Assembly (NCBI GenBank): GCA_051294905.1
Contig: CM119372.1
Span: 38,318,001-38,382,000 of the forward strand
Source of the DNA: Botryllus schlosseri
Lineage: Eukaryota
DNA: 64,000 nucleotides
Direction of reading: 5' to 3'
Shown here: piece after piece, positions 1,161-53,235 of the stretch
Numbering within the stretch: position 1 is the stretch's first letter
Layout: each line of letters opens with the position of its first letter
Made by a program: the position numbers and the translations under genes
The notes under the pieces: model-generated
What the model was told of the DNA's origin: nothing
Databases searched by the model: none
The model's input: only the letters and a program-made list of their open reading frames with translations

Positions 1161-3310
1161 CTTTGAAGTTACCGACAGTGTTACCAATTTAATTTTGAAG
1201 TGAATTGGTAAACCATGTCGATGTCGCATCGCACATATGACGATTTATGAGGTGGCGGTTGCTGTAGGCCTATATGCATTATAGTGAAATAATGTCGGCA
1301 TATTCAGAAGATGTGTGTAATCAACTGACAGCGACGCATTGTCTAGTAAATCTGACGCAGATACTATTGAGGAATTATCACATTAAGGTAAGTCATTGAG
1401 TGGTAAGTAGTGTAGTTGGATTCGTTTCGTGCAGGCCAATCAAATTACGCCACGTCGCCTTAATTGCCACGCCCATAGTGCCACATCATCCATCCATTGC
1501 TATATCATCGCTGCATTGATTGCCGCATCTTGATACTTTTCTCAGATATTGTATTATGTGTATTTAGGACTAATATCATCCGTCCATATTTTTTAAACTT
1601 GATTTTATGTGTATAAGTTACGGTTTCTGCAGTTTCCACATTTTACGACTCATGATTGCCGCGTCAAAACTTACCTTGGCTAGAATCGACAGATTTTCTA
1701 TTATGTGTATTTAGGACTATGTATTTAAATTCCTATTCAGATTATACATAAATGCGAAAACTATGATGTCTATGTAAGGTTATATTCTCCGGATAATATT
1801 ATTAATATCAAAATTCTACACATCATCACTAATTACTTAATATAAAATGCGATTTTGAGCGCTGCGACTTGATAATATGAACCCCTACGCTTCTGATGCA
1901 TGATTTTTTGTGATAAGGACCTAGGTAACATTCAGAGTCTGCAACGATTGTTTGGATATACATTATAGCAATACCCCACTAAACTATAGGCGGTTATATT
2001 ACTCTATTGGTCAGAGATAACTCATCCGTCCATATTTTTAAACTTGATTTTATGTATACAAGTTACTGTCTCTGCAGCCTCCACATTTTACGACTTATTT
2101 TCATTAGACGCAGGCAAGCGATTCTCCAGTTCGGAGCTACGGAAACAAATCACTCGCATGTGCGCGTTCCGAATAGTCTTGTAGAATTTTCTAAAGTCGT
2201 AACAGCTTAGTAGCATATACGCGAATCCCAAGGTGAAAATAATCGAACGAACTATAGCCGTAGGCGTGCGATTCGCAGGGCTTTATTTATACAAACTCTA
2301 TCGATGCCTGTACGCGAACCCCAGCGTTAAAACGATTAGGTCTAATTAACACGTTCTGAAGCCGAAAATTTAGTCAACATCATTGAGATAGCCATGATCT
2401 GAAGATGGTGATCGAGTGTGACAATAGCACTCGCCAAGGTTAGACAAACATAACCTTAAACTACTCTCTACTTCACAAAATATAAAGTTATAAAAGTAAG
2501 CAGATTTCTATGAAAACCCGTGAAATAGAAGTAAAAGTAGCCTAGAAACATAACTACTTAATGAAAAATCGTGATTCTTGAAGTGACCACATTTCATACG
2601 ATTCAGTCCTTTTCATGTCACTAGAATAAGGTGATTAAACTGACAGTGAAACGCCGCCGGCGTCTTATAACGTAATAATGTAAGCTGCGTCGGGTGCTGC
2701 TATAATGTTAGGAGCGAATATAGTAGAAAGTTCACGTCTGGACATCTGTAAGCAGGTGCGCATACTACCGTAGTAAAACGCATAACAGAATTCACGCAAA
2801 AGTCGATATTGCTTTGTGATGCTTTTGATGTTGTTCCATACCGATTAGGAAGATAGGACTCCTAATTTCCTAACTAACTACATAATCCCTAGTAACGTAG
2901 TCAGACGCATAACGGAATTTACGCAAAATCGGTATTGCTCTGCGATAATTTTGACCACTATGTTTTGATAACTTGCTTCCGAGAAATAAATAACATTCAT
3001 TATACGTTAGATGATACTTTTCCTTGATATTCTATTATGTGTATTTAGGGCTAATGCGACATCACTATATTGGCAACAGGCCTGATTTGAACACACTAAT
3101 TTTGCGAATTAAACTTATCGCCCAACACGGACACTCAATGAAGAGCACCCCGGAGCAGTGGCGTAGCAGCCACTTGGCGGTTCTGGCTCTGCGCCAGGGG
3201 CGGCAGGCTCCAAAGGGGCGGCAAAATGAGGCTGCGCAGTGAGAGAGAGATATATAATATTCTTTTTCGCCTGCACCATCGAGATGCTTTGACGACGGAG
3301 ATGCGATACG

Positions 3311-4264
3311 CAGGACCGTAACTGCCGCACCCCAAACCCCCCAATTGGGGGGGGCGAGCTCGAAGGGGGCCCAAAATTATTTCGTGAATTAGCATAAATT
3401 ATAGAGTATTTTTTGAAAATTTATGCAATTTTTCAAAAAAATTTTCGCGCTACGTGCGATTTCAAGGTGCCAAATATCATGATTATTTTGTACTCTTCCC
3501 CCAAGAAAAGAGCACGCAAGATTTTTGGAAATGGACATATCGGCGTTGGTCAATACCACGACACGACGCACCAAGACATATAACGTTTTAGGACATATTA
3601 CATGCAACTCCAAGAAGTATGCCAGAACGATCGGCAGCGTAAAAACCTTGACCGAAAAGGACTGCCCTTACGCTGACTGAAAACTTTGTCATATATACAA
3701 AATACAGATAGCTTTAATTGTCCATAGCCTAGGCGCCTAAATGACCGACGCCGAATGTTCCTGTCTTGGCAATCTGAACCTCAGAAGACGAATTCCATCC
3801 CGCAGGGAAAAATTATACGCCAGTGAAGAAAAACCAATTTGAAATCGTGTGCGTCTTTTAGTTAAGTACGTTTGCCCGATTCTATATTTTTTGATGTAGC
3901 AGACAGGAGATCACGGAATAACATCATGTAACGAAGTCATACCAACGGGTCCGCCCGCCGAAGATGTTTAATTATTTTTACGAGACCTACAGTTTCCAAG
4001 ACACCTCCTTCAGCTCTACCGGTAAAACTGATAAAGTGAACAGAGAGGACAGGAAAATGATAGCAAAATATATGCAATTCCCGATCTTATTGAGCGATTT
4101 TATCATTAATTATGAAAAATGTTTGCGCTTAGCGCTGGCTCACTAAACAGCACGGCTAGTTGCGTGGAAAAAGCGATCAACACGATGGGGGGTCGGTTTA
4201 TCACCCTATGGGAGCCCAAGACCCAAGTTTTTCGGGGACCTGACGAAGTGCTGTTTCGTTCCTG
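3311..4264. mobile_element. hAT MITE nested in the hAT element; same family as 23683-24420
   Basis: Starts caggaccgtaactgccgcacccc; internal and 3' sequence similar to 23683-24420; TSD not evident. Confidence 0.65.
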
Positions 4265-4991
4265 CCAACGGGTCTGCACCCGAAGATGTTTAATTAATTT
4301 AATAAAATTTAATCAAACAGGTCTCAATCAAAAGCTAGTGTCGTGCTGATTCCGAAAACAGGAATTAATATGTTAACATGGCGATGGAACCACTCCGAAA
4401 TAGCCGTCATGGTCGATTGTTCGGAGAGTTCGCACAAAAAGAAGAATGCTTGGCGAACAATCAGAAAATGCTGGCCTCAGTGTTGTTGAAGAAGTTAGAC
4501 GATGCATGTTTTTCAACCTTTGGACAGATTTAAACTTGAAGCTGAAGCTAGGTTTACCGGCATACAACACTTAAATGATATGCTTCAATTTTTTTAATTC
4601 CCGCGCGCTGCTGCAAAGCGAAAGTCACAATTTATTCCCCGGGTGGCTCGGCTCTGAAGACTATGTCATATCGAGCCTCCCGTCTAACTTGCATGTCACA
4701 TTTCACTGTTACATTTTTCTAGTGTTATGTTGATATGTAATGTATACGAATAAAGATTCTCTCTCTCTCACCAGCGCTTTTAGGAGCACTTATGACGACA
4801 AGGTGGACTTTTTGGAGTTAACTGCGAAAATTGTCATGCCTTATACCTTCGAATTAGGGATCATATAAATCAGAAAATTGCTAGCTTTTCGTACAAACCA
4901 ATATGAGGCCTCTAGGACGAACACAAATTAAGATATGACCAAGATCATATGAAGTTGTTCAACTTGAGATTTTAAAAGGGTCAAGAGGCTG

Positions 4992-5300
4992 GTGCGGAGC
5001 AGTAAAACCACGTTTGATCGTAAAGCAACAACGTTTGATGTTTTACAGTGGTTAGTTAATGCAAAGCTACCTGATTCGACACCATATTTAGGCTCGTGTC
5101 TGAAACTTTACCTGACCATTGGTGTTTCAATTGCGAGCTGTGTGAGGAGCTTCTCAAAGCTTAAACTGATTAAATCTTATTTACGTTCTATACCAGTAAT
5201 GATGACCGGCTATCTGCTCTATCTATGCATTCTGTCTATAGAAAGAGACTACGTTCAAAAACTTGAATTTGAGGATATTATCGCTGATTTTGCTTTGAGG
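4992..5300 (+). pseudogene. hAT transposase C-terminal dimerisation domain fragment
   Basis: YLTIGVSIASCVRSFSKLKLIKSYLRS...LSIERD..FEDIIADFA matches the hAT C-terminal (hATC) motif; upstream part broken. Confidence 0.9.
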
Positions 5301-6429
5301 CGGCTATTGATTTTCTATTTTCACAATACATTCGTTCGCTATTTCTTGTCTTTATTATTTTTGGCCTTATTAACGTTGAGGCGGCGAGGCTGAGACGCGA
5401 CATATTATTTGTAATTATTTTTATTGACAAGATTGTTTGAACATGAATCTATGTCGAAATTTGCTGCGGTCTACTTAGGGGGGCGGCATTTTAACCGAGA
5501 GCCAGGGGCGGCAGCACATGCTGCTACGCCAGTGCCCCGGAGACCCGCATAAATGCTCCACAATTCTCGACATATAATATACTGAGCATATAATAAGCTA
5601 ACAAAACCTATACTTGAGTACTCCGAAATGTACAAGTACTTTAACTTTACACGACGTTTTTGTAAAATGAATACTAATTTTAATGGAAAATAAAAATTAT
5701 GTACTCAAGTAGGTTTTTGTCTACACGCACGAACTACTCAAGTGTTTATGACACAGGAATGATTCATTAAGTATACCGCAAGCAGGCCAAACCTATACTT
5801 GAGTACTCCAAAATGTACAAGTACTTCGCTATGTACCCCCTCCACGTAAAAAGTATCTATAGGTTTTAGACTACTTTATCGATTTTCGATGTTGCGCAAA
5901 TACCACAAACTTTGCTTTCTTTCAGAGCTGGCAACTAAATGCAAGACAGACTTTACGCAAAAGTCTCTATTCTGAAAATTTTATCAAGTTAATACATTAA
6001 AAACTTATACTTGAGCACTACGAAATGTACAAGTACTTTATCTTTACACGACGTTTTTGTAAAATGAATACTAATTTTATTGAAAAAATAAAAAATAAAA
6101 AAGAGAGAAAAATTACATTTTATCCCGGAACGCAAAAAGAAAAATCGTATGAATTTGTAAACTACTTATTCATGACATAGTAATAATTCTACTTGTACAC
6201 TTTTTCACATTTTATAACACTTTAAGTAGTACTTAACAGTTTCAGTTTTAAATAAAATACGGAATATAAACTAATCGAAAAATTCGGTAACCAATTGCGC
6301 GCAGGCTATGCATACAAATGAGGAAAGTTACATCAACACGCGTTAACTAGTTGTATCGAGTTATCGAATGATTTTTTCCTTACATCAAAACAACTAGAAC
6401 GTGAAACTACATTAAAAACGTATCTAAAT

Positions 6430-7460
6430 GAGCTCCAGGGCATTGTGATTATGCAGCATGCCAAATTTCATCAACCATTTCATGATGGAACAACTTTAAA
6501 ACTAACGCAGTTCTATAGCAACTTTCGCCTAAATCTGTTTTCGGTAGCGTATACATATACATAGTCAGCTTTAATAACAGAATTACCAAGCTAATATGTG
6601 ACTCCTCACCTTGCAACTTGGTACGTAGTTGTAGGACATTGTGATTATGTAGCATACCAAATTTCCTCACGCATTTCATAATGGAACAACTTTAAAACTA
6701 ACGCGGCTCTACATCGACTTTTTGCGTACATCTGTTTTGCGGGAGCGTATAGAACGTACCTATACATAGTTAACTTTATTAACGGAATTACCACGCTTAA
6801 CATTGAATCCCAACTCTAAACTTGATACGTAGTTGTAGGACATTATGGCAATGCACCATGCTAAATTTCATCACACATCTAAGGATGGAACACCTTTGAA
6901 ACTATCGCAGTCGAATATCGACTTTTACGCAAATCTGTTTTTCGTGAACATAGCATATGCCGATACATAGTCAATTTTAGTAACAGAATTAGCATGTTAA
7001 ACATTAAATTCTCACCTTGAACGTTGGTACGCAGTTGTAGGACATAATAACAATGCACCATACCAAATTTCGTCAGGCATTCCATGATGTAACACCTTTA
7101 AAACCAACGCAGTTCTATACAGACTTTTGGCTAAATCTGTTTTTCCGTAGCGTAGCACGTACCTATACATAGTCAACTTTAATAACGGAATTACCATATT
7201 AATAATCGACTCCCCCCCTTGAAACTCGCTACGCAGTTGTAAGACATTATGACAATGCACCATGTCTAATTTTGTTACGCATTTCATGATTGAACAACTT
7301 TTAAACTAACGCAGTTCCATACCGACCTTTGCGGGAGCGTAGCACGTACCTATGCATACTCAACTTTAATAACGGAATTACCGAGCTAAACATTGAATGC
7401 GCAACTTGAAGATTGGTTCACAGGTGTAGGACATTATGACAATGGAACATATCAAATACC
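6430..7460. repeat. Tandem array of ~5 diverged ~200-bp units (left arm)
   Basis: Recurrent catttcatgatggaacaactttaaaactaacgcagttctat and gtagttgtaggacatt blocks about 200 bp apart. Confidence 0.85.
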
Positions 7461-7872
7461 GTGTTTCCATGAAAATAACAAGACATTACACATCCAGTAT
7501 ACTTCCAATCGACATCGCGCTGGTTGATGCGGCGCTGTGCACCATATAGATGCGGCAATCAATGCGGTGATGATGTGGCAATGGATGATGTGGCACTATA
7601 GGCGTGGCACTTGATGATGTGGCGCAGATGATGTGGCAATGGGTGTGCTATAGGTGCGGCAATGGGTGGATGATGTGGCAAGGGGGTGTCCTATAGGTGC
7701 GACAGAAAAACACACATATTTGACCGTATGGTCTTAGTATGAACCGACATGCATTCGACTTGTGGAAAAATGTGTCGCACACTATTTCACCGAGATTACA
7801 ACCCTTTCACGGATATTCGTTGGTGCTATCGATACGGTGAACAGCACGTTATGTATAGCGATATCTCCACAG

Positions 7873-8148
7873 TCAAATACGCGAACCATGCACAACTATA
7901 TACCCCGACTTTCGTTGAATATTCACGACACCAACAAATCTGTACATCTCCTTTCCCTCGACATCAATGATAGAATCCTCATCCCAATGCGCAGTACGAA
8001 TGGTGGGTTCATCGGGTGTAAAATCCAAATCAAATGACACCAAGGTCTGCTTTCTCATTTTCAATATTTCCACCACCGCATCTTGTCTGTGTCTTAGCAC
8101 TACCGTGTGAGGATGGCGAAATCTGTGGGTGGTAACACGGATGGACAT
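7873..8148 (-). CDS. Small hypothetical protein (~91 aa, MSIRVTTHRF...), possible residual element ORF; left-arm copy
   Basis: Intronless ORF from an ATG, protein-like composition, same translation in both arms; no recognised family. Confidence 0.35.
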   Translation of the reverse strand: MSIRVTTHRFRHPHTVVLRHRQDAVVEILKMRKQTLVSFDLDFTPDEPTIRTAHWDEDSIIDVEGKEMYRFVGVVNIQRKSGYIVVHGSRI

Positions 8149-11100
8149 GATATTCTTCGATATGATCAACTGAAACCACGGATGTGGTGGGTTAGAGTCT
8201 TGTCGTGATGGTCCGTTTCGAAATGCAAGCGGATGAACTAGACCAAAAGTTTCGAAGATGCGTTTTATAATTGCTCTAGGTGTGAAATAGACATCGCACT
8301 CTTGCGGGGAAACAACACGAATTCAGTCTTCACACCGCAGAAACACAGCCGCTTGGTTAACATCACAAAACCGCAATTGAACTCAAGATTGCCATACACG
8401 GAATCGCTGTTAACGATGTCTGACTGCGGCGTTTCGACGAGTAACGAATTCTCGTATTTAGTATTGATTGTGACACATAGTCAAAACAGCGACAGTTTTC
8501 ACAACCCGGTACATACATTGAACCAACTGATGTAAGGTGAAACACTACGTTCACACCAAAAAAAGTTTGCAGGGTATGACCACCACCAACATATAGAGTA
8601 GTGAGTGAGTAATTAAACTACATACCCCGATTTTACTATATTCCGAGATCCGGATCACGATTCAAGTCTACCTGAGAATCCGAACTACCCTGTGAAGTTG
8701 ATATATCAAGTTGTGAACCGTGAAAGGGTTGTAATCTCGGTGAAATAGTGTGCGACACATTTTTCCACAAGTCCAATGCATGTCGGTTCATACTAAGACC
8801 ATGTTACGGTCAAATATGTGTGTTTTTCTGTCTCCAAGTCAGCTACCCCCACATTGAATGTACAGAGTCGGTGCATGTATGAGACTTCAGAACATGAATT
8901 TGTAATCCATGATGCTTGTAGTACCGGCCATGATGTTATCCATGATGTATGTAATGTCACACACCTCTTTTACGCGAATACTTGGTATCTATGAACAATC
9001 GTGAAGTATACTGGATGTGTAATGTCTTGTTATTTTCATGGAAACACGGGGGGGGGGGGTGTAACATGTTTGAATATTGTTCATTGGTTTGTCGATTCAG
9101 AGTTGATATCCGGATCCGGTTAATACTTTCTCGGGTTTCCGATTTCAAACTGAACGGTGGGATATGTATTGACCAATAAAGAGTGACACAATATAGTAAA
9201 CATGTGTGAGAAAACTCACAAGTAACCCGGATTTGTTAGCGCGACGGGGACATAAATTCAACCATTATCCGTGTACCAAGCAGTTACCAAAGTCATGGAG
9301 GTTGCTAATTTCAACATATTGACTCTGTGGGAGGCTAAAGCACGAACCGGGACACACACAGACACACACACACCAGGACACACAATATCCGTCGATTTCC
9401 AAAGCATACATTTCGATATACAAGAGCATATTGTTATTTCATGTGGTTAACCGTTGATATAGATGCGATGCGATCGACGCGGGTATACTCTGAAACCGGT
9501 TGTCCGTTTATATGAGAAAAGATGCTGTGAAGGACTTTAAAAAGCGGCAGTTGAGCAAGACGTAGTTTGCTTACTGCAGTAATTCATTTCACTTGCAGAA
9601 CTTCTATGGCCAAGCTCCACGTGTGTGTTTCAGAGTAGTTCCAAATGAATGAATTTCATTTTCACGTGCTTGAATTCGTTTTACCATACTGTAAAATACT
9701 TTTACATGCCCAAGTTGGGGATCCTCGTTACATTGTCTTCTTGTGTGTTGGTGATTAAATACATTGCGGCGCTGTCACTTGGCTCTTAATTGGGTTGTTT
9801 CATCTGAAAGAACTAATTTTGTCTGTTATAATACTTTATTAGACTTGTATGGCGAGGCGTCTGGTATCGAGAAGTGAGATCGCGAGCAATCATTGAGTCA
9901 GTCGTGATGTCTGATTGGGAGTGTCGGCCTCTTATATCCAGCAAGTGTAATGTGCCATATTAGGCCATAAGTATCGTAGGCCCCGCGTGAAGTGTACAAA
10001 TTTCGATGTTGCGCAAATACCACAAACTTTGCTTGCTTTCAGAGCCGGCAACTAAATTCAAGACAGACTTTACGCAAAAGTTGCTATTCTGAAAATTTTG
10101 TCAAGGTAATGGTTTGGAAACTTATACTTGAGCACTCGTACTTCTTGAGAATACCCAAGTAGGTTTTTTGCCTAGATGCACCACATAGTCTCAAGTCCTT
10201 ATGATATTGGAGTACATCAACTTCATGATAGCTAGAGTATTAAACAGTAATATACCTAGATACTAACGTTTTACTTACTCGGAAATGACTACTTCTACCT
10301 TATTTTAAAGGATACCTCGTTCGAAGCGAAATTGTATGTGGGTTTTGGATAACATCCAAGATGTAGGCTCACTTCGAAGGTTACTTCGTAAAACTCAAAT
10401 ATTGCGCAGTGAGAGTTCGCAAATTCTCGAAGTATTTTTGTTATTTTTATTGCGATAAGTCATTCTGCAGCGCGAAAATGCGTCGTAGGATATAGATGAA
10501 ACTAGCACCACTCATCAAGACCGCTGAAAACAGTACGTTTCAACATTTAGTAGCAGTAAATTTCTAGTAAAGTACAAGACGTGATGATTTCCGAGTGAGT
10601 TAAAAAGTATTGCAGGTATAGTTTACCTGAAAACCGAATACTCTGAAATAGAAGTAGATGCAGTGTAAATAGTTAATCACTTGATTAAGTTTAGCGCAAG
10701 CAGATAAAACCTATACTTGAGTAGTACAAAATGCACGAGTACTTCGCTATCGCCTCCCAGCACGTAATAAGTGCTTTTACCGATACTCGTCGGTTTCAGT
10801 TTTAGATAGAATTCAGAAACCAAATAATTTCATAAACATAAGCTAATTTAATGAATTTACTCGAATGTAGTATGCCGCGCTGATAAGATTAATTATAATA
10901 TACTTATCATGTTACAGCGATTTTTCTAGCGTAGAAAATCTTTAAAATGTAGTAAGCAGGCCAAATGAAGATATTCGTTGAGTTGAATAAACATAAAAAA
11001 TACTCTAGACCACTTTATCGGTACTTTACTGTTTCAGTTTTAGATAAAATTTGTCCCTTTCACCTATAATTACAACTCCTCGCTATCTAAACATGTTTAG

Positions 11101-11758
11101 AATATATTATTTGCGATGATACGAACCCGTGAAGTGCTCAAGTAGCTTTTCGTAGGATATAGATGAAACTGACAACACTCACCAAGACCGCTGGTCCACT
11201 GAAAAAAGTACATTGTAGCAGTAAAGTCCTACTAAAGTACAAGAAGTAATGATTTCCCAGTTAGTTGAAAAGTAAGTACTGAAGGTATAGTTTGCTGGAA
11301 AAAGCGAAAAACTCTGAAATCGAAGTAGATGCAGTGTAAATAGGTAATCACTTCATTAAGTATAGCGCAAGCAGGCCAAACCTATACTTGAGTACTGCAA
11401 AATGTACAAGTACTTCGCTATGTTCTCCCTCCACGTAAAAAGTGACTAGGTTTTAGACTACTTTATCGGTACTCGACAGTTTCAGTTTTAGATAAAATTT
11501 GGTAAGACTTTAAATTTTAAAGTAGTTTGAGCTTACGTTTGTATCACCTTGACAAGTAACATTATCAGACATGAAAATGATACTATCACTTAATATAGAA
11601 GTTAACACGCGTCAATGTGCTTCGGAATTCACGAGAAATTGCTTACTAAGAGAAGTATATTCTTGTATACACAATAGCGAAGAGAATCTTTAAAATGTAG
11701 TAAGCAGGCCGATGGGTATTCGTTTAGTTGTATAGGCATAAAAAACATTCCCGCGCGC

Positions 11759-11800
11759 TCTTAAACAAAACACTTCCTAACCCTACCACCTAATACTAAG
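11759..11800. other. 42-bp non-palindromic spacer at the palindrome axis
   Basis: cccgcgcgc|tcttaaacaaaacacttcctaaccctaccacctaatactaag|gcgcgcggg. Confidence 0.95.
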
Positions 11801-14800
11801 GCGCGCGGGAATGTTTTTTATGCCTATACAACTAAACGAATACCCATCGGCCTGCTTACTACATTTTAAAGATTCTCTTCGCTATTGTGTATACAAGAAT
11901 ATACTTCTCTTAGTAAGCAATTTCTCGTGAATTCCGAAGCACATTGACGCGTGTTAACTTCTATATTAGGTGATAGTATCATTTTCATGTCTGATAATGT
12001 TACTTGTCAAGGTGATACAAACGTAAGCTCAAACTACTTTAAAATTTAAAGTCTTACCAAATTTTATCTAAAACTGAAACTGTCGAGTACCGATAAAGTA
12101 GTCTAAAACCTAGTCACTTTTTACGTGGAGGGAGAACATAGCGAAGTACTTGTACATTTTGCAGTACTCAAGTATAGGTTTGGCCTGCTTGCGCTATACT
12201 TAATGAAGTGATTACCTATTTACACTGCATCTACTTCGATTTCAGAGTTTTTCGCTTTTTCCAGCAAACTATACCTTCAATACTTACTTTTCAACTAACT
12301 GGGAAATCATTACTTCTTGTACTTTAGTAGGACTTTACTGCTACAATGTACTTTTTTCAGTGGACCAGCGGTCTTGGTGAGTGTTGTCAGTTTCATCTAT
12401 ATCCTACGAAAAGCTACTTGAGCACTTCACGGGTTCGTATCATCGCAAATAATATATTCTAAACATGTTTAGATAGCGAGGAGTTGTAATTATAGGTGAA
12501 AGGGACAAATTTTATCTAAAACTGAAACAGTAAAGTACCGATAAAGTGGTCTAGAGTATTTTTTATGTTTATTCAACTCAACGAATATCTTCATTTGGCC
12601 TGCTTACTACATTTTAAAGATTTTCTACGCTAGAAAAATCGCTGTAACATGATAAGTATATTATAATTAATCTTATCAGCGCGGCATACTACATTCGAGT
12701 AAATTCATTAAATTAGCTTATGTTTATGAAATTATTTGGTTTCTGAATTCTATCTAAAACTGAAACCGACGAGTATCGGTAAAAGCACTTATTACGTGCT
12801 GGGAGGCGATAGCGAAGTACTCGTGCATTTTGTACTACTCAAGTATAGGTTTTATCTGCTTGCGCTAAACTTAATCAAGTGATTAACTATTTACACTGCA
12901 TCTACTTCTATTTCAGAGTATTCGGTTTTCAGGTAAACTATACCTGCAATACTTTTTAACTCACTCGGAAATCATCACGTCTTGTACTTTACTAGAAATT
13001 TACTGCTACTAAATGTTGAAACGTACTGTTTTCAGCGGTCTTGATGAGTGGTGCTAGTTTCATCTATATCCTACGACGCATTTTCGCGCTGCAGAATGAC
13101 TTATCGCAATAAAAATAACAAAAATACTTCGAGAATTTGCGAACTCTCACTGCGCAATATTTGAGTTTTACGAAGTAACCTTCGAAGTGAGCCTACATCT
13201 TGGATGTTATCCAAAACCACATACAATTTCGCTTCGAACGAGGTATCCTTTAAAATAAGGTAGAAGTAGTCATTTCCGAGTAAGTAAAACGTTAGTACTC
13301 TAGGTATATTACTGTTTAATACTCTAGCTATCATGAAGTTGATGTACTCCAATATCATAAGGACTTGAGACTATGTGGTGCATCTAGGCAAAAAACCTAC
13401 TTGGGTATTCTCAAGAAGTACGAGTGCTCAAGTATAAGTTTCCAAACCATTACCTTGACAAAATTTTCAGAATAGCAACTTTTGCGTAAAGTCTGTCTTG
13501 AATTTAGTTGCCGGCTCTGAAAGCAAGCAAAGTTTGTGGTATTTGCGCAACATCGAAATTTGTATACTTCACGCGGGGCCTACGATACTTATGGCCTAAT
13601 ATGGCACATTACACTTGCTGGATATAAGAGGCCGACACTCCCAATCAGACATCACGACTGACTCAATGATTGCTCGCGATCTCACTTCTCGATACCAGAC
13701 GCCTCGCCATACAAGTCTAATAAAGTATTATAACAGACAAAATTAGTTCTTTCAGATGAAACAACCCAATTAAGAGCCAAGTGACAGCGCCGCAATGTAT
13801 TTAATCACCAACACACAAGAAGACAATGTAACGAGGATCCCCAACTTGGGCATGTAAAAGTATTTTACAGTATGGTAAAACGAATTCAAGCACGTGAAAA
13901 TGAAATTCATTCATTTGGAACTACTCTGAAACACACACGTGGAGCTTGGCCATAGAAGTTCTGCAAGTGAAATGAATTACTGCAGTAAGCAAACTACGTC
14001 TTGCTCAACTGCCGCTTTTTAAAGTCCTTCACAGCATCTTTTCTCATATAAACGGACAACCGGTTTCAGAGTATACCCGCGTCGATCGCATCGCATCTAT
14101 ATCAACGGTTAACCACATGAAATAACAATATGCTCTTGTATATCGAAATGTATGCTTTGGAAATCGACGGATATTGTGTGTCCTGGTGTGTGTGTGTCTG
14201 TGTGTGTCCCGGTTCGTGCTTTAGCCTCCCACAGAGTCAATATGTTGAAATTAGCAACCTCCATGACTTTGGTAACTGCTTGGTACACGGATAATGGTTG
14301 AATTTATGTCCCCGTCGCGCTAACAAATCCGGGTTACTTGTGAGTTTTCTCACACATGTTTACTATATTGTGTCACTCTTTATTGGTCAATACATATCCC
14401 ACCGTTCAGTTTGAAATCGGAAACCCGAGAAAGTATTAACCGGATCCGGATATCAACTCTGAATCGACAAACCAATGAACAATATTCAAACATGTTACAC
14501 CCCCCCGTGTTTCCATGAAAATAACAAGACATTACACATCCAGTATACTTCACGATTGTTCATAGATACCAAGTATTCGCGTAAAAGAGGTGTGTGACAT
14601 TACATACATCATGGATAACATCATGGCCGGTACTACAAGCATCATGGATTACAAATTCATGTTCTGAAGTCTCATACATGCACCGACTCTGTACATTCAA
14701 TGTGGGGGTAGCTGACTTGGAGACAGAAAAACACACATATTTGACCGTAACATGGTCTTAGTATGAACCGACATGCATTGGACTTGTGGAAAAATGTGTC

Positions 14801-15405
14801 GCACACTATTTCACCGAGATTACAACCCTTTCACGGTTCACAACTTGATATATCAACTTCACAGGGTAGTTCGGATTCTCAGGTAGACTTGAATCGTGAT
14901 CCGGATCTCGGAATATAGTAAAATCGGGGTATGTAGTTTAATTACTCACTCACTACTCTATATGTTGGTGGTGGTCATACCCTGCAAACTTTTTTTGGTG
15001 TGAACGTAGTGTTTCACCTTACATCAGTTGGTTCAATGTATGTACCGGGTTGTGAAAACTGTCGCTGTTTTGACTATGTGTCACAATCAATACTAAATAC
15101 GAGAATTCGTTACTCGTCGAAACGCCGCAGTCAGACATCGTTAACAGCGATTCCGTGTATGGCAATCTTGAGTTCAATTGCGGTTTTGTGATGTTAACCA
15201 AGCGGCTGTGTTTCTGCGGTGTGAAGACTGAATTCGTGTTGTTTCCCCGCAAGAGTGCGATGTCTATTTCACACCTAGAGCAATTATAAAACGCATCTTC
15301 GAAACTTTTGGTCTAGTTCATCCGCTTGCATTTCGAAACGGACCATCACGACAAGACTCTAACCCACCACATCCGTGGTTTCAGTTGATCATATCGAAGA
15401 ATATC

Positions 15406-15681
15406 ATGTCCATCCGTGTTACCACCCACAGATTTCGCCATCCTCACACGGTAGTGCTAAGACACAGACAAGATGCGGTGGTGGAAATATTGAAAATGAG
15501 AAAGCAGACCTTGGTGTCATTTGATTTGGATTTTACACCCGATGAACCCACCATTCGTACTGCGCATTGGGATGAGGATTCTATCATTGATGTCGAGGGA
15601 AAGGAGATGTACAGATTTGTTGGTGTCGTGAATATTCAACGAAAGTCGGGGTATATAGTTGTGCATGGTTCGCGTATTTGA
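15406..15681 (+). CDS. Small hypothetical protein (~91 aa); right-arm copy
   Basis: Mirror of 7873-8148. Confidence 0.35.
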   Translation: MSIRVTTHRFRHPHTVVLRHRQDAVVEILKMRKQTLVSFDLDFTPDEPTIRTAHWDEDSIIDVEGKEMYRFVGVVNIQRKSGYIVVHGSRI

Positions 15682-16093
15682 CTGTGGAGATATCGCTATA
15701 CATAACGTGCTGTTCACCGTATCGATAGCACCAACGAATATCCGTGAAAGGGTTGTAATCTCGGTGAAATAGTGTGCGACACATTTTTCCACAAGTCGAA
15801 TGCATGTCGGTTCATACTAAGACCATACGGTCAAATATGTGTGTTTTTCTGTCGCACCTATAGGACACCCCCTTGCCACATCATCCACCCATTGCCGCAC
15901 CTATAGCACACCCATTGCCACATCATCTGCGCCACATCATCAAGTGCCACGCCTATAGTGCCACATCATCCATTGCCACATCATCACCGCATTGATTGCC
16001 GCATCTATATGGTGCACAGCGCCGCATCAACCAGCGCGATGTCGATTGGAAGTATACTGGATGTGTAATGTATTGTTATTTTCATGGAAACAC

Positions 16094-17124
16094 GGTATTT
16101 GATATGTTCCATTGTCATAATGTCCTACACCTGTGAACCAATCTTCAAGTTGCGCATTCAATGTTTAGCTCGGTAATTCCGTTATTAAAGTTGAGTATGC
16201 ATAGGTACGTGCTACGCTCCCGCAAAGGTCGGTATGGAACTGCGTTAGTTTAAAAGTTGTTCAATCATGAAATGCGTAACAAAATTAGACATGGTGCATT
16301 GTCATAATGTCTTACAACTGCGTAGCGAGTTTCAAGGTGGGGAGTCGATTATTAATATGGTAATTCCGTTATTAAAGTTGACTATGTATAGGTACGTGCT
16401 ACGCTACGGAAAAACAGATTTAGCCAAAAGTCTGTATAGAACTGCGTTGGTTTTAAAGGTGTTACATCATGGAATGCCTGAAGAAATTTGGTATGGTGCA
16501 TTGTTATTATGTCCTACAACTGCGTACCAACGTTCAAGGTGAGAATTTAATGTTTAACATGCTAATTCTGTTACTAAAATTGACTATGTATCGGTATATG
16601 CTATGTTCACGAAAAACAGATATGCGTAAAAGTCGATATTCGACTGCGATAGTTTCAAAGGTGTTCCATCATTAGATGTGTGATGAAATTTAGCATGGTG
16701 CATTGCCATAATGTCCTACAACTACGTATCAAGTTTAGAGTTGGGATTCAATGTTAAGCGTGGTAATTCCGTTATTAAAGTTAACTATGTATAGGTACGT
16801 TCTATACGCTCCCGCAAAACAGATGTACGCAAAAAGTCGATGTAGAGCCGCGTTAGTTTTAAAGTTGTTCCATTATGAAATGCGTGAGGAAATTTGGTAT
16901 GCTACATAATCACAATGTCCTACAACTACGTACCAAGTTGCAAGGTGAGGAGTCACATATTAGCTTGGTAATTCTGTTATTAAAGCTGACTATGTATATG
17001 TATACGCTACCGAAAACAGATTTAGGCAAAAGTTGCTATAGAACTGCGTTAGTTTTAAAGTTGTTCCATCATGAAATGGTTGATGAAATTTGGTATGCTG
17101 CATAATCACAATGCCCTGGAGCTC
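16094..17124. repeat. Mirror copy of the ~200-bp tandem array (right arm)
   Basis: Reverse complement of 6430-7460. Confidence 0.85.
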
Positions 17125-20100
17125 ATTTAGATACGTTTTTAATGTAGTTTCACGTTCTAGTTGTTTTGATGTAAGGAAAAAATCATTCGATAACTCGATA
17201 CAACTAGTTAACGCGCGTTGATGTAACTTTCCTCATTTGTATGCATAGCCTACGCGCAATTGGTTACCGAATTTTTCGATTAGTTTATATTCCGTATTTT
17301 ATTTAAAACTGAAACTGTTAAGTACTACTTAAAGTGTTATAAAATGTGAAAAAAGTGTACAAGTAGAATTATTACTATGTCATGAATAAGTAATTTACAA
17401 ATTCATACGATTTTTCTTTTTGCGTTCCGGGATAAAATGTAATTTTTCTCTCTTTTTATTTTTTATTTTTTCAATAAAATTAGTATTCATTTTACAAAAA
17501 CGTCGTGTAAAGATAAAGTACTTGTACATTTCGTAGTGCTCAAGTATAAGTTTTTAATGTATTAACTTGATAAAATTTTCAGAATAGAGACTTTTGCGTA
17601 AAGTCTGTCTTGCATTTAGTTGCCAGCTCTGAAAGAAAGCAAAGTTTGTGGTATTTGCACAACATCGAAAATCGATAAAGTAGTCTAAAACCTAGATACT
17701 TTTTACGTGGAGGGAGTACATAGCGAAGTACTTGTACATTTTGGAGTACTCAAGTATAGGTTTGGCCTGCTTGCGGTATACTTAATGAATCATTCCTGTG
17801 TCATAAACACTTGAGTAGTTGGTGCGTGTAGACAAAAACCTACTTGAGTACATAATTTTTATTTTCCATTAAAATTAGTATTCATTTTACAAAACACGTC
17901 GTGTAAAGTTAAAGTACTTGTACATTTCGGAGTACTCAAGTATAGGTTTTGTTAGCTTATTATATGCTCAGTATATTATATGTCGAGAATTGTGGAGCAT
18001 TTATGCGGGTCTCCGGGGTGCTCTTCATTGAGTGTCCGTGTTGGACGATAAGTTTAATTCGCAAAATTAGTGTGTTCAAATCAGGCCTGTTGCCAATATA
18101 GTGATGTCGCATTAGCCCTAAATACACATAATAGAATATCAAGGAAAAGTATCATCTAACGTATAATGAATGTTATTTATTTCTCGGAAGCAAGTTATTA
18201 TCAAAACATAGTGGACAAAATTATCGCAGAGCAATACCGATTTTGCGTAAATTCCGTTATGCGTCTGACTACGTTACTAGGGATTATGTAGTTAGTTAGG
18301 AAATTAGGAGTCCTATCTTCCTAATCGGTATGGAACAACATCAAAAGCATCACAAAGCAATATCGACTTTTGCGTGAATTCTGTTATGCGTTTTACTACG
18401 GTAGTATGCGCACCTGCTTACAGATGTCCAGACGTGAACTTTCTACTATATTCGCTCCTAACATTATAGCAGCACCCGACGCAGCTTACATTATTACGTT
18501 ATAAGACGCCGGCGGCGTTTCACTGTCAGTTTAATCACCTTATTCTAGTGACATGAAAAGGACTGAATCGTATGAAATGTGGTCACTTCAAGAATCACGA
18601 TTTTTCATTAAGTAGTTATGTTTCTAGGCTACTTTTACTTCTATTTCACGGGTTTTCATAGAAATCTGCTTACTTTTATAACTTTATATTTTGTGAAGTA
18701 GAGAGTAGTTTAAGGTTATGTTTGTCTAACCTTGGCGAGTGCTATTGTCACACTCGATCACCATCTTCAGATCATGGCTATCTCAATGATGTTGACTAAA
18801 TTTTCGGCTTCAGAACGTGTTAATTAGACCTAATCGTTTTAACGCTGGGGTTCGCGTACAGGCATCGATAGAGTTTGTATAAATAAAGCCCTGCGAATCG
18901 CACGCCTACGGCTATAGTTCGTTCGATTATTTTCACCTTGGGATTCGCGTATATGCTACTAAGCTGTTACGACTTTAGAAAATTCTACAAGACTATTCGG
19001 AACGCGCACATGCGAGTGATTTGTTTCCGTAGCTCCGAACTGGAGAATCGCTTGCCTGCGTCTAATGAAAATAAGTCGTAAAATGTGGAGGCTGCAGAGA
19101 CAGTAACTTGTATACATAAAATCAAGTTTAAAAATATGGACGGATGAGTTATCTCTGACCAATAGAGTAATATAACCGCCTATAGTTTAGTGGGGTATTG
19201 CTATAATGTATATCCAAACAATCGTTGCAGACTCTGAATGTTACCTAGGTCCTTATCACAAAAAATCATGCATCAGAAGCGTAGGGGTTCATATTATCAA
19301 GTCGCAGCGCTCAAAATCGCATTTTATATTAAGTAATTAGTGATGATGTGTAAAATTTTGATATTAATAATATTATCCGGAGAATATAACCTTACATAGA
19401 CATCATAGTTTTCGCATTTATGTATAATCTGAATAGGAATTTAAATACATAGTCCTAAATACACATAATAGAAAATCTGTCGATTCTAGCCAAGGTAAGT
19501 TTTGACGCGGCAATCATGAGTCGTAAAATGTGGAAACTGCAGAAACCGTAACTTATACACATAAAATCAAGTTTAAAAAATATGGACGGATGATATTAGT
19601 CCTAAATACACATAATACAATATCTGAGAAAAGTATCAAGATGCGGCAATCAATGCAGCGATGATATAGCAATGGATGGATGATGTGGCACTATAGGCGT
19701 GGCAATTAAGGCGACGTGGCGTAATTTGATTGGCCTGCACGAAACCAATCCAACTACACTACTGTGGTATATACGATTTTGAGAGTCCTCTGACGACCAA
19801 TACCATTACAGCAGGGTTCGCCACTCAAAACGGGTCGCGGGCCACTTTTCAGATTTCGTAGAGGCCGCGGATCGCAAGCATGCAATAACGAGACAAAATA
19901 GACCACACAGTTTAGCAAGCACGCTTTTAAAACTTTACGTCAGTGCAGCGCTATGCTTTCTAACGCAGGCGATGTGCGTATTTACCATATGCCTGGGCAC
20001 AATGATTCGAGTACTCGAATCTGAATCGACTAATAATTCTAAACATTCGGGTCGAGTAGTAAAATTTGAATTTTTTGAGTACCCAAAGTATACGTTCCAT

Positions 20101-27900: not shown

Positions 27901-30576
27901 CCATGGAGAATAAAGGCCAGCTCCAGCAGTTCTCTGTAATGGTCACTCATCTGAGTGACTTTCACAGTTGTCTCCAATACCTTCGCCATCTCATTTATCA
28001 TGTCAGCCACAGCATCGGACGTATAATGATCAGTTGACGTGTCCTCAAATGTAGTGTGGTCAATACGACGTCATCTTCTTTGAAGCACTTGAACAAGAGA
28101 ACATCTGGAGCAGATGAATTGACCAGGGCTTCCGAAAAGACTGATGCACGCCAAGCATCTTGTCTAAAAGAATGCCGTTTTTAGTGCCCATTGGTATCGA
28201 AGCATATGCCGAGGATCTTTCTCTTTAACTCCCCGTATTTCCGAATAGAAAATATAGCCTCAGCTTGTGCTTTTCATCACAAGCTGAGGCTATCTTTTCT
28301 ATTCTGAAATACGGGGAGTTAAAGAGAAAGATCCTCGGGATATGCTTCGATACCAATGGGCACTAAAAACGGACCTAGATGGTAACTTTGAGACTTAGTA
28401 GTAGCTGTGATTGACCAGTATTTGTCACTAGCATAGCCAGCAGTCAACAGTATCCATTCCAGTGACATCTGGGATTAGTTTGCCATCCCCGTGCACAATG
28501 AATGGAAACTGTGGGTCTAACTAATATTTAATTTGTTCGGAGATGATTCTACTATTAACTAATAAATGAACTATTAAAGCGTGTAATTATTAACTTGAAA
28601 AACATTCGGTAGAAGACTTCATTCAACTTTACGACGAATAAATCACCAATTATTTTAGAGAATTCGCGCCTTTCAGATGTTTTTCTTGAATATCCGGATG
28701 CTTAGAAGTAGGAGGAACCTAGTTTAATTGCCGCAAAATCTTTTATCCGCACATTGGCTGTCACCAGCTACCAGGCTTAACGTTCCATTGCCTTATGTGA
28801 GGAGTTTTCTGGCCGTATCACAAAGAACAAGGAGCAACTGCATTTTCATTTAGCGTCTTTGCTTACCAACGCGAAAAAGCTCCCTAACACCCTAAAGCTG
28901 ACCTCACTTGGTGACGGCAATTGCTATTGGCCATGATTACACCCTAGCCACTGAGCAGCTAATACCCACGCGACGGAATCCAGGCTTAATCGTTGGTCCG
29001 AAAGCAGCTATAGAAGTGACTATATGTGCTTTATACTGCAAATATGTAGAATTTTGGATCCATTGAGCCACCTCTAAATATTAATGCAACATTTTGGCAG
29101 GGTCACACCAACAACTTTCCAAACTTCGTTTTCTATGGCCTACCCTAATACACATCTTATACAATGTTACATAGATCACTGCTGCATGAAATTACCTATG
29201 CAGCAACACCATTAAAATTACATTTTCACACAAAACGAAAACATTACAATAAATTTGTATATTACAAATCTATATGACTTCTGCTGTTCCTCTTCAGAGA
29301 CCAGTTCAGAAATGCGAGGCTTCACTTTCGAAAGTGTCCTTGTGTTGTTCGATCGAAATGCAGCAGCGTGATACGAATTATTTCAATACATATGTGCTTA
29401 TAAAAAGTGGGGATAGAATTGTCATTTCAGACGGACTGCATATCGGTTTTAAGCCCCAACTTCACGTACGTACGTCACAGCAGATGAAGTAACGCCACAA
29501 CAGTCATAATTCGACTACTGATCGGGCCTAGTTACCTCATACCCATAATTGTCAAGACGGGGTATCATCACAAACCATATGTATGAGTTTATTGTGTGTC
29601 TTAAACTTCGTGGAACCCCTCAAACTGGCTCGCAGAACCCCTAATCTTCCGTGGAACACCATTTAAGAACCCCTGAACTAAAAATTTGCTACAAGTAGGG
29701 TTGCATATAACACAAAATCAATTTAAAACAAACATGTTTAAATGAGGACCCTTGTTTAAAACATGTATTAATTTAAGCCACAACGTCACGAATATTCAAT
29801 TGTGACATCATTGTGGATTGACATTGATAATTGAAAATATAGAGCAGGGGTGTCAAACATACGGCCCGCAGGCCGCATCCACCCTTACCGACCCCCCCCC
29901 CCAGACTGTTTCATCCGACCCGCGACGCGATTCTGAAAATGGCTCTATTATCTGGTACATTTTTACCAAATGCTGAGATTAATGATCCCTCAAGACAGAA
30001 AATGTCGACGATATTCATAAGCGACATTATAGCAATCCGACAGTGTTGTTGAAGTTACGCTGTTGTCACCATCAGCAACATTGACACCCAACGGCGAGGA
30101 GGCAAAAAAGTGCACAGCCAGTTCCCAGTTTTATGGAAAAACGGAACACAAAGTAGACTGTAGTTATGAGCAGAAGTGAAAACGTCAGTTAGAAACCGGT
30201 TTATCCATGCTACATAGAAATATAATTATGACACAAAAATATACTGTAAATATCTGTGGCTGCACGCCGTCTGCGCTTATGTCTTAACAGCTCCTCGCTC
30301 TCCAGAGAAACCAGAATCGCGATATAAACTTCATTTCAACGTATGCGTTAAACGGTTAAATCGCTTGTACACCTCACAATGCACACATGGTACTATATAG
30401 TCAGATTACAACTAAAACAAAGCAATCATAGCAATATGCCAACCTATATCGTCAGTGAAGCCGCTGTTTAGCAGGTTTCAACCGACCAATCATGTTAATT
30501 TTGTCAATTCCATTGTTCGCGAATAAAGGTGTTAATAGAAGACAACCCTATGGTCCGTGATATACCGTAATTATTT

Positions 30577-31650: not shown

Positions 31651-32197
31651 GAATAGTATATTCATATTGAAATGAACCCGAATATTTTCGGCTGACACTC
31701 GTCAGGGGTAATCGTCTCCAACTAGTTGAGAATTCGAAAGAACAGCGTATATCAACAATCGTAGCACAATATATGAACTCACCAGCACGAACTGTCGAAT
31801 ACGAAAGCGTTCAATGTACTATTTTTAGATGATACACGAACTCTTTTTGTTGATACAGCCTTGGCTGGTGTATTTTGATAAAAGTCGACTCCAAGGCACA
31901 CAAATGAAAGTGTGAGCGACCCTTTCCGAGTATGCGAAATCTGTCGTCTCGATAATTTTTCGCACAGGCGGGATTATCAAACAAGTGTTTGCCAATTGCA
32001 GAATTTATGGCCTTCGATTGTTCAGCATCAATCTTGAGCGGATGAGTTAAGGGTGAGCTTTTTACCGAGCGTGTTCTAATGAATCTAGGGACATGCTGAT
32101 TTATGCGTTTCTGCAAGCGCTTTGACGTTCTTCCCACGTAGCCACAATCACAGCGACACTTGAATTCGTAAACTACATTGCTTTGCAAACAAAACAA
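31651..32197 (-). mobile_element. 5'-truncated Penelope-like retroelement (GIY-YIG endonuclease and pLTR)
   Basis: ORF 31811-32197 SNVVYEFKC.C...YVGRT.KRL..RI..H...SAIGKHL...LES.FI...P is a PLE-type GIY-YIG domain. Confidence 0.9.
31676..31709 (-). ncRNA. Minimal type-I hammerhead ribozyme in the Penelope pLTR
   Basis: Minus strand reads ACCC-CUGACGA-GUGUCAGCC-GAAA-AUAU-UC-GGGU: core boxes, stem I and palindromic stem III. Confidence 0.75.
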
Positions 32198-33519
32198 TCC
32201 GCGACGTCATCCGGAAAACGGCAAAACTTAAAAGGGGCTCCGCGCTTTGCATATGCTGCCTATCACATCATAATCTAGCCGCCCATGGCGTGTCCTAGTC
32301 TGGAAAAGTGGACTTTGACTTTTTCTCAGCTTTACACCTGTTTTAGCAGGCCACTATTGAAGCTTTCTGGACAAAAGACATGGAATATATTTGTAGCTTT
32401 TTAGAAGTAGTATTTATATTTCTCTTTCAATCCCCAGTATTATACCTCGCGTTTTTATTAGTTTCAGTTCTCTTGTCTGGATAACATGCATGTTGATTTG
32501 TTGAAGTATAAAAGCAAGTGTGGATGGGTGGGTATAGGGTATTATGGCGCTCAGCAACTAGGGCTTTGTGCGCCATGCCTGAGTGGGGGGTTGATAGGGG
32601 GATCACATAATCAATTAATGGGTGTACCAAGTGTAGTAATGCCTCTATTTTCCGAAAATAAAGCTACGCTATATGGCATTTATACGATCTGCCATATTTT
32701 TTATCAACGTTTACTAATCGCGCAATGTTAACACCGATCCGACACCACTTCTCCATGTTGATCTTCGACCAAACTACGGGCCTTATAATATGAGGGCGGG
32801 CGCATTAACATGATATTTTCTAATTCGATGTGTTCGAGTAAACATATGATTAGTATCGCATTTCCATATCAATGCTACCATTTTCATCCCACGATGCGCA
32901 CGAATGCTTATGCTGTCGAAAATTTATAGATCCTGGGATTCATCAATATGAATCAAGCTCTGCACCTTTCGCATAGCTCAATTTGCAGCTTTTGACAATC
33001 TATGCGAACGAATTACGATCGTTTTCACATCTACTTACTTACTTGAGTAGATTTAAAGTCAGTCAATTCTACTTCTACTTCAAGTAGTTTCAAGCTGCTT
33101 TTAAAAGAACTACTTTTACTCATACTTGAATAGATTTTTGCGTCACCACTTCTACTTCTATTTGAGTAGCTTTCTTGACTACTTTGACCACCTCTGGTGG
33201 GGTCTCATATTAAAGATAAATCGGGAAAAAATTTTGACCGCAGCCATTTTCATCAGAAAATTACCGTAATGGAATTGCAGCTGAAAGATTATCAAAATTT
33301 TCCACATTGTACTCTAGCTGAATAAATTTATATGGTGCCGTGGCCGCGCTTCTTAACCCATTGCAAATTTTCTGGTACGACCTCTGCATTGTTGCACTTG
33401 GTCGACCCAGTTTCTCGACGCGACTTCTATCTTCTAGTCCTATTTCTTTAGGTATTATTCGATGAATATCCCATTAAATAATGATAATTCATTCTTCATT
33501 GGCAGGTACAAACTACTAT

Positions 33520-33952
33520 GCTATGTTTCAGACGTTCTACAGATAGCTTCTAATCTCATCCGCTCAAGCTTTAGGATGAGCGTTCAAGGCCAGAAATTCT
33601 GCAATTGGCAAACATATGTTAGATAATCAAGCTTGTGCCAAAAATTATCGAGACGACATATTTCGCGACATTGGGAATGGCCGGTCACACATTCATCTGT
33701 GTGCCTTGGAGTCGACCTTTATCAAAATACATCAATCCAAGCTTTGTCTACAGAAGGAGTTCGTGCACCATCTTAAAATAGTACATTGAACGCTCTCTTA
33801 TGTGAGATTACATTTCATGCTGGTGACATCATATTTCGTGATACGATTGTTGATATACAATGTTTTTCCGATTTTCTACTAGTTGATGACAATTACCCTC
33901 GACGAGTGTCAGCCGAAAATATTCGGATTCATTTCAATATGAATATACTATT
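33520..33952 (+). mobile_element. Degenerate Penelope-like GIY-YIG/pLTR fragment, inverted relative to 31651-32197
   Basis: tctgcaattggcaaaca...tgtgccttggagtcgacctttatcaaaatacatc; ends atgaatatactattc; hammerhead core altered (ctcgacga). Confidence 0.85.
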
Positions 33953-35313
33953 CCGCTTCCAATCTACCATAAATTTAGATAACTGAGTATTAAACAGAAA
34001 AAATAAAGATTAAGGTGGGGATTGCTGACATTACACGCCACGTACCTTTCGGTAATATTTACATAGCAAAACAAGAATAATCTGGATAATCTCAACACAT
34101 ATGCGTATCATGTCTCTTTCTATAGCTTATTATTAACAAAAACATCAATAAGCTTGCGAAAAGCTCACCCGAAAGGTCATTATGACTCGGGGCTAAGCGT
34201 TTAAAAGTAGCTGCTGAAAACTGGGCGTGCCAGCGACATCAATGATCACGACCATGGCGACTTACTGATGACATGTCAAAAAAAGTCAAAATTTTGTCAA
34301 AATTGTAGCGTTAGGTCAAAAAATGTCAAACTTTTTTATGAAGTAAATTTTTTTTTACAACCCGCATTTCGTTTGTATCGTAGATTTTGCAATGTTGGTG
34401 AACTTATCAATTGACTACCGTCGTTGACTCGACGCAGTACAACACAATTCAGTAAGTGTAATCAAGTAATCATAATGTCCAATCACGATACACATCAAAC
34501 TCCCACCTTAACATGGCCGTTTTAAACCGCGAACTTTAAAAACGTTACAAGCTGGCGACTTGGTATTCACCGCCGAGCACTGCTCTATGTTGAGCCAGAC
34601 ATACTGTTTGAATAATCCCATAAAATAAGGAAAGTTTAACGCTGATCCTTTGTTCGGGACTATGATTGGAAGGTAGATCGAAAGGAAGATGATCAAAACA
34701 GCCTGCGAATGTGTATTTTATGTACTATACCGCCATTTGGATGTATAGCATCGAAATTCCCTGACAATTTTTCAAATCTGAACCGACCTACTGTATATGC
34801 TGCCAATTCCAATGAAATTTCTTGCTGCTACGTAATAAGGTGGCGAATTGAGTGACACTTTATATATATAATCCACATAATACCCAAAGAAATCGTACTG
34901 GAAAACGGAGGTCTCGTCGGGCAAGCGCAACAGTGATAAAGCAGTGGCATAAATTTAACAAAATTTTAAGAACCGAAGACACGCATCCGCAACATCATAT
35001 AGATCTATTTATGCAGCTAGAGTGCAGTAGGTATATTTTTAATGATCGTGTTACTGTAGTTCCATCACGGTGACTTTCCGAAGAAAATGGGTGCGGCCAA
35101 ATATTTTCCCCAGATTTTATCTGTAATTTTGGAACACATAGTTAGTGCGCAGTGCCACTTCAGTGAAGTTATGATGAGCCTGCGATATCGCCAACCCATT
35201 TTCAACCTCTCAGTTAGCGCAACAGTTTGGCTCGTAATCACAAGACTTGTTCGCTACATGACGTCGATATCACAGTGAGCAATAACGTTTTATCACTGTT
35301 ATTTCATAATTAC

Positions 35314-47665: not shown

Positions 47666-48103
47666 TTCGTAACCAGAAGTGAGGGCCCGCGGGAGAGAAG
47701 AATTATTGCCAGTGTTGCCAATTGACGCATTTAGAAGCCAAATTACAGAATTTAGGCACATTTTCATGCTGGTTAGCACCGCTGTTTCCGCTATTCCGTA
47801 TTTTAGGAATGCCCGTATGGCACATTGGCACATTCGAATTTCTTCAACCAGAGCTATGTAAATTTGGTAACAGCACATTAGATCTTATCAAGTGCTGTTT
47901 ACATGAGCACCTAAAGAAGTATTTGATGTTAGAAAGAATTGTAGAGATATGGAATTGATGTTCGCATATAGCTGCATATCGAAATATTAGGTCCAGGTCA
48001 CTTTATCTCAGAGGTCTCAAACACGCGGCCCGCCAGATCATTTCGTGCGGCGCGCGTCAGCATTTTGGATTTTTGAGTATTCGACAATATTTAACTGCCA
48101 CAT

Positions 48104-53228: not shown

Positions 53229-53235
53229 CTCAGTG

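Follow-up and report, generated by a model that had tools for sequence, protein, structure and literature searches.

A 64,000-nucleotide stretch of the Botryllus schlosseri genome (assembly GCA_051294905.1, contig CM119372.1, positions 38,318,001 to 38,382,000 of the forward strand; hereafter the window, in the coordinates of which all positions are given) contains a single giant inverted repeat, the arms of which meet at 11758/11801 around a short, almost G-less centre. The palindrome is an integrated element with ends of the Polinton/Maverick type, and its axis is a real, shared turning point; the element seems fixed as an integrated family. The features that define the element and its axis are as follows.

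1400..1411, + strand: 6-bp target site duplication GTGGTA (1400-1405) and left end motif AGTAGT (1406-1411)
1406..11758, + strand: left arm, 7,966 bp without the hAT insertion
3148..5542, + strand: hAT-type element (3156-5534) inserted later and into the left arm alone, with an 8-bp duplication (CCCCGGAG) and terminal repeats of 15 bp
11750..11758, + strand: left half of the GC clamp (CCCGCGCGC), the terminal bases of the left arm
11759..11800, no strand: non-palindromic 42-nt centre, with T11759 bulged and a CTTA/TAAG extension; covered in all four public runs compared
11764..11796, + strand: unpaired G-free 33-nt loop
11776..11785, + strand: CCTAACCCTA, a 10-nt match to (CCCTAA)n, disrupted in a variant loop
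11776..11790, - strand: GG-T-GG-TA-GGG-TTA-GG, a possible two-tier G-quadruplex motif
11801..11809, + strand: right half of the GC clamp (GCGCGCGGG); base 11801 is polymorphic between copies
11801..19763, - strand: right arm, 7,963 bp, with 23 mismatches and 8 small indels relative to the left arm
19758..19769, + strand: right end motif ACTACT (19758-19763) and 6-bp target site duplication GTGGTA (19764-19769)

The element is 15,971 bp long when the hAT insertion is excluded. Its arms are ~99.7% identical to each other, and the left arm has an extra stretch of 2,387 bp. The commonest Maverick end motif, (AGT)2//(ACT)2, together with a 6-bp target duplication constitutes the definition given in PMC8097293. 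Of the end motifs that mark Polintons/Mavericks, (AGT)2//(ACT)2 or (AG)3//(CT)3, the former is present as AGTAGT at 1406 and ACTACT ending at 19763, and the 6-bp target site duplication GTGGTA is found on both sides. None of the Polinton core genes (pPolB, integrase, ATPase, protease and capsids) was detected within 1406-19763 by open reading frame (ORF) and Pfam analysis, which included no translated search for decayed genes. Outside the hAT insertion, the only stop-to-stop frame of at least 100 amino acids in this interval is a mirrored frame of 149 amino acids that belongs to no Pfam family and holds the 91-amino-acid ORF described below. With no core gene found, the element is not an autonomous Polinton. 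Its end motif had no matches in viral contigs. In one public run (X1), this stretch is represented by many variant contigs at very high summed depth; the insertion sites of the other copies lie outside these data. A many-copy, non-autonomous palindromic element of ~16 kb with Polinton/Maverick ends is considered probable, if narrowly so, jointly with the explanation of its axis that is developed below.

The hAT insertion retains a remnant of a hAT dimerisation domain at 4968-5393. Both arms contain a 202-bp tandem array, at 6437-7457 and 16097-17117. Nine of the 23 mismatches between the arms fall within 6437-7500 (1,064 bp), versus three in the 4,258 bp that adjoin the axis.

Stem and loop at the axis

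The initial annotation of this DNA described the arms as meeting at a GC-rich stem that closes an almost G-less 42-nt loop with a single terminal G, and both parts of this description are borne out. CCCGCGCGC at 11750-11758 pairs with GCGCGCGGG at 11801-11809 to form the GC clamp that closes the axis. Between them, the 42 nt of 11759-11800 comprise 17 A, 14 C, 10 T and one G, which is the last base. DNA folding adds 4 bp past a 1-nt bulge, between CTTA (11760-11763) and TAAG (11797-11800), and with this extension the fully unpaired loop is refined to 33 nt (11764-11796) that contain no G.

Nonamers composed entirely of G and C are rare elsewhere in the arm (4 of 7,955), and so are 33-mers devoid of either G or C (52 of 7,931 across the arm, 372 of 63,968 across the window). 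The chance tests on the clamp, the loop and the telomere motif (below) were all chosen post hoc, after the feature had been seen. An unstructured state is not rare, as a minimum free energy of 0 is found also in 8.5% of 1,132 42-mers of the arm, and the fold z-score at the axis reflects the palindrome only. No Rfam family matched the stem-loop at its gathering score; two generic microRNA-hairpin matches reached 35.7 of 100 and 29.5 of 117 bits. A sigma-70 promoter scan was set aside as irrelevant to an animal genome.

The loop in public runs and among copies

The segment 10350-11810 is present, whole or in part, in 20 of 24 listed public runs (11 studies). Four of those 20 runs (X1, X15, X16 and X18, from four studies) were compared as contigs over 10900-11830 at 80% likeness, so that the result covers close copies; copies diverged near the axis would not map. 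All 30 bins were covered in each of the four runs, including the bin that contains loop sequence alone (11764-11795). Relative to the median arm bin, the depth of the loop was 0.36 in X1, 0.41 in X18, 0.26 in X15 and 0.26 in X16; relative to the lowest arm bin, the values were 0.70, 0.83, 0.39 and 0.44, respectively. One loop per two arms predicts a ratio of 0.5; paralogous modules raise the depth of several arm bins, and summed contig depth is not equivalent to copy number. The presence of the loop in X18 despite just 1.51 Mb of contigs in that set suggests a repeat. One contig of X16 spans 11695-11830 through the loop with two other letters and two gaps.

Variation at the axis was drawn from 24 of 248 loose ends, 40 of 95 substitutions and 12 of 20 indels. 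Four junctions of X1 touch the axis, with depths of 4.8-15.7 each versus 26,135 at 11801, and axis junctions other than this loop are single low-depth contigs. Two opposite-strand joints were rejected as new turning points: 11751-11807 corresponds to the element in its opposite reading, and 11739-11823 lies within 4 nt of that. A flipped loop, in a palindrome that occupies the whole element, is equivalent to the element read from its other end. Junctions 10999-11791 and 11347-11801 resemble one-sided deletions that retain most of the loop. At 11801, A makes up 19,113 of the summed X1 depth of 26,135 (73%) and is also the base in X16, and X15, X18 and the window copy have G; with A at this position the bulge shifts by one base and the 33-nt loop is unchanged. 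The outcome that the initial annotation set against its own proposal was a unique loop, with unrelated, random turnaround points in other palindromic copies. What was found is the same loop in four of four runs, at an order of depth that fits most close copies, and it seems to be inherited by most of these as a fixed turning point.

The arms of the window copy are far more alike (~99.7%) than copies are to one another: 6,884 of 10,208 mapped X1 contigs are less than 99% alike to the window copy. Twelve of the 40 listed substitution sites were chosen for a common alternative letter; at ten of them both arms share the window's letter, and the remaining two are known arm mismatches. The letter that both arms of the window carry at 11030 (mirror 12529) accounts for at most 20 of an X1 depth of 59,892, and the other letter is at full depth in X15, X16 and X18. 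Being common to both arms, this base would be a new mutation that reached both of them, and as a nearly private base it points to arm-to-arm copying; a small sub-lineage is an alternative reading. Repair while the element passes through a folded single strand, or gene conversion between the arms, could homogenise them.

Inner cassette and other fold-back structures

Three further features within the arms bear on the history of the axis.

7459..9049, no strand: inner fold-back cassette, present in both arms, with inverted repeats 7459-7505/9003-9049 and 7701-7812/8718-8832 (96.5%)
7873..8148, - strand: ORF of 91 amino acids (276 nt) of no known family, inside the inner cassette; its mirror copy lies within 15232-15681 on the + strand
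10927..11000, + strand: paralogue of 11675-11745 (85%), the likeness ending just before the GC clamp

The repeats of the inner cassette enclose a unique stretch of 905 bp. This cassette may be an older axis, in which case the present axis would be a second, younger fold-back that doubled the old centre into both arms. The 91-amino-acid protein has no Pfam family, no Atlas match and no match in viral contigs. A protein search with it returned 18 representatives, one 98% identical and 17 with short multi-stretch matches. Five of those 17 were WD40 proteins when scanned, and the Pfam scan of the query itself gives no support to a WD40 identity, which was not used. The sub-terminal GCCACATCATC repeats have an internal copy in inverted orientation at 7540-7705 (86% to 1462-1530), which lacks the AGTAGT end and is possibly a relic terminus.

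Six further, older fold-back elements are found elsewhere in the window (28175-28372, 31651-33953, 38269-40951, 48101-50687, 53234-53672 and 58825-61191), with arm identities of 82-94%. The two small centres that were folded among these six have neither a GC clamp nor a G-free loop. The window also contains a broken gag region with DUF1759 (56046-58153), which we take to be BEL/Pao-like, and a GIY-YIG fragment slightly below the Pfam cut-off (31811-32206). Two related palindromic units resembling repetitive extragenic palindromes (REP-like) lie between bacterial genes in L002, at 708-786 and about 1717-1801, and are unrelated to the stem-loop.

Origin of the axis and its relation to known systems

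The best explanation of the axis, held with modestly better than even confidence, is that it is the point at which a founder molecule folded back, inherited ever since, serving as the closed tip of a hairpin intermediate and, in the chromosome, as a spacer between the arms. In the founder, synthesis along a linear precursor would have turned back at a short GC-rich interrupted repeat, by fold-back priming or by a template switch. Thereafter the element would have been copied in trans, from its ends, by the protein-primed polymerase of a helper. The displaced single strand would fold into a hairpin of 8 kb, with this loop as its closed tip and the GC stem closing it; copying round the loop would restore the duplex, which would make a resolvase unnecessary. 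Repair or copying within the hairpin would keep the arms alike, the unpaired loop being merely inherited. In the chromosome, a spacer of 33-42 nt would lower the risk of cruciforms and breaks, and would thereby favour copies that keep it.

Parts of this scheme have counterparts in the published literature. [quoted passage not shown] Template switching by the protein-primed phi29 polymerase at specific sites yields subgenomic molecules (PMC4974454), and Polinton replication has been modelled with a single strand folded into a 'racket' (PMC4196379). A 12-bp spacer frequently stalled forks in eukaryotic cells whereas a 52-bp spacer did not, in inverted Alu repeats that are far shorter than the arms described here (PMC7999016).

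Two proposals of the initial annotation concerning the origin and role of the stem-loop survive in part. A pre-existing hairpin that primed the fold-back is plausible from the sequence at the axis: a rare all-G/C stem stands exactly there, and the stem-loop is absent from the paralogous unit upstream, since the 70 bp ahead of the clamp (11675-11745) are 85% like 10927-11000, which runs on without clamp or loop. A non-palindromic donor copy of the stem-loop was not found: none is present in the window, and neither the stem pattern nor the loop motif had a match in viral contigs (0 each); in metagenome contigs, the stem pattern occurred in two GC-rich, bacterial-looking contigs with unrelated loops, which were attributed to chance. 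A candidate donor within the hAT insertion (ATTCCCGCGCGCT at 4597-4609, identical over its 13 nt to the left clamp) was rejected, having an E value of 0.053 and no partner or loop. Also rejected was the idea that the loop continues the upstream paralogous unit in diverged form, the likeness being matched by 328, 1,045 and 892 of 2,000 shuffles under three scoring schemes. The chance that a GC-rich interrupted repeat predated the fold-back is about even. The second proposal was a hairpin end or resolution site of a linear extrachromosomal form. A closed tip of a folded single strand is plausible given the Polinton-type ends; nothing shows a resolution or nicking site, and no resolvase, protelomerase or nuclease gene was found in the element by ORF and Pfam analysis.

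Several observations weigh against an inherited fold-back point. Besides the missing non-palindromic donor, neither a helper element nor an extrachromosomal form turned up in the window or in the contigs of the public runs. Because most of the depth ratios are below 0.5, a sizeable minority of copies may be without this loop, and other centres may be hidden given the fractions of loose ends, substitutions and indels on which the axis variation is based. Run X1 is possibly the assembly's own sample. Finally, the composition of the loop, which is G-free and has four GG runs on its opposite strand, is not explained by mere inheritance.

In an alternative that we regard as doubtful, the loop is a selected cis-element: as a single strand in the hairpin form, G-rich or C-rich, it would be bound by a protein or would form a two-tier G-quadruplex that caps the tip, sets a nick or aids packaging. 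In its favour, two rarities coincide at the axis, the GC clamp and the G-free 33-mer. The four-GG-run pattern of the minus strand (GG-T-GG-TA-GGG-TTA-GG) recurs in 1,252 of 100,000 loop shuffles. In the sole variant loop seen (37 letters, compared by eye), which is clearly the same sequence with CCTACCC replacing CCTAACCC, the four G runs are retained while the bases between them are altered; a single variant gives a hint only. The G4Hunter score of the loop is a modest 0.96, a value reached by 1.4% of 25-nt windows. None of the 40 listed substitutions falls within 11759-11800, but 42 nt would be expected to hold ~1.8 of them and the listing is weighted towards the deeper arms, which makes the zero uninformative. 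Rare deletions cut into the loop, and the element has no nuclease gene. The loop may have no role beyond that of an inherited spacer. Similarly doubtful is a more elaborate proposal, that a Polinton-type virus has a natural snap-back satellite and that the loop is its functional tip, kept by selection. Such a satellite would have an 8-kb single-stranded hairpin genome with a GC clamp and a protein-bound or G-quadruplex loop, gained by a second fold-back that doubled an older centre with the 91-amino-acid gene.

A somewhat less likely possibility is that the GC stem is incidental or later, the axis being a blunt rejoining after deletion of the centre of a larger palindromic ancestor, or the whole a Foldback-type transposon with merely Polinton-like ends. 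One-sided deletions are seen in the run contigs, the arm is pieced together from duplicated modules, and no Polinton gene proves descent. Nevertheless, the ends and the 6-bp duplication fit the Maverick definition in PMC8097293 exactly, and a random join would rarely fall beside an all-G/C 9-mer. That the loop holds a telomere remnant, a linear form having been broken, healed by telomerase and later folded back or joined, is improbable. The initial annotation called the loop telomere-like, and the 10-nt match to (CCCTAA)n is real: CCTAACCCTA is the only match of this length in the window (7 of 100 window shuffles contain one), and one of 10 nt or longer arises in 276 of 100,000 loop shuffles. 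The sea squirt telomere repeat is TTAGGG. The resemblance is nonetheless weak, as tandem telomere repeats (at least two, kept among copies) are absent from the loop: the match amounts to less than two repeats, lies in mid-loop with non-telomeric sequence on both sides, and was tested once the motif had been seen. In the variant loop, CCTACCC in place of CCTAACCC breaks it. The loop is probably not a piece of a telomere. Giant palindromes are a known class of sequencing and assembly artefact (fold-back chimeras), and no read spanning the whole element was among the data used. This explanation is very improbable and is largely refuted by the 6-bp duplication at the outer ends, by the 23 mismatches and 8 indels between the arms, by the 2.4-kb hAT insertion in one arm only, and by the loop in four of four runs from four studies.

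The element shares features with several known systems, and would work like AAV snap-back genomes and the template-switch products of protein-primed replicons. It resembles Polintons/Mavericks in its (AGT)2//(ACT)2 ends, its 6-bp duplication, its size (15-20 kb for the family) and the folded single-strand intermediate proposed for them (PMC8097293, PMC6431247, PMC4196379). It departs from them in other respects. Its inverted repeats fill the whole element, at 8 kb each, whereas 100-1,000 bp is usual and butterfly polintons have ~2 kb; the 'racket' has a loop of just 33-42 nt; and genes for a polymerase, integrase, ATPase, protease or capsid were not found. Adeno-associated virus (AAV) snap-back genomes are also self-complementary and helper-dependent: these subgenomes keep the terminal origin and turn internally with or without a loop (PMC8235507). 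AAV snap-backs turn at many places and use Rep and hairpin priming, whereas the present element has one seemingly fixed turning point and integrates with a 6-bp duplication. Fold-back priming and ODIRA likewise leave a short repeat with a loop of less than 70 nt at the centre of a large palindrome (PMC7999016, PMC4689423). Those are one-off host rearrangements, whereas here a mobile element carries the junction.

Protein-primed linear replicons such as phi29 release shortened molecules that turn at specific sites (PMC4974454). Unlike the present element, derivatives of phi29 and of yeast pGKL1 are not integrated families in an animal genome. The subgenomic molecules of phi29 described by Murthy in 1998 are reportedly palindromic, and pGKL1 is said to have hairpin derivatives, which the literature search did not retrieve. 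Small non-palindromic centres in giant inverted repeats are also known from the hairpin telomeres of poxviruses and of protelomerase systems and from the centre of Tetrahymena ribosomal DNA. The element differs from hairpin telomeres in that it has no resolvase or protelomerase gene, its stem is GC-rich with a long loop, and its outer ends are of the integrase type. In the open-access literature (Repbase and subscription papers were outside the search), no description of whole-length palindromic Polinton derivatives was found, nor anything on the Tetrahymena centre or on ascidian Polintons.

That Polintons/Mavericks replicate through a folded single strand, which a protein-primed polymerase copies, has so far the status of a model. 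A whole-length palindrome that has Polinton ends and one seemingly fixed 42-nt centre provides a direct handle on this model. As the loop is the sole non-duplicated tag of the element, hairpin molecules could be detected with it by snap-back or S1 assays and by strand-specific probes, and arm-specific bases could reveal repair within the hairpin. The element also shows how a eukaryotic genome can hold many near-perfect palindromes of 16 kb.

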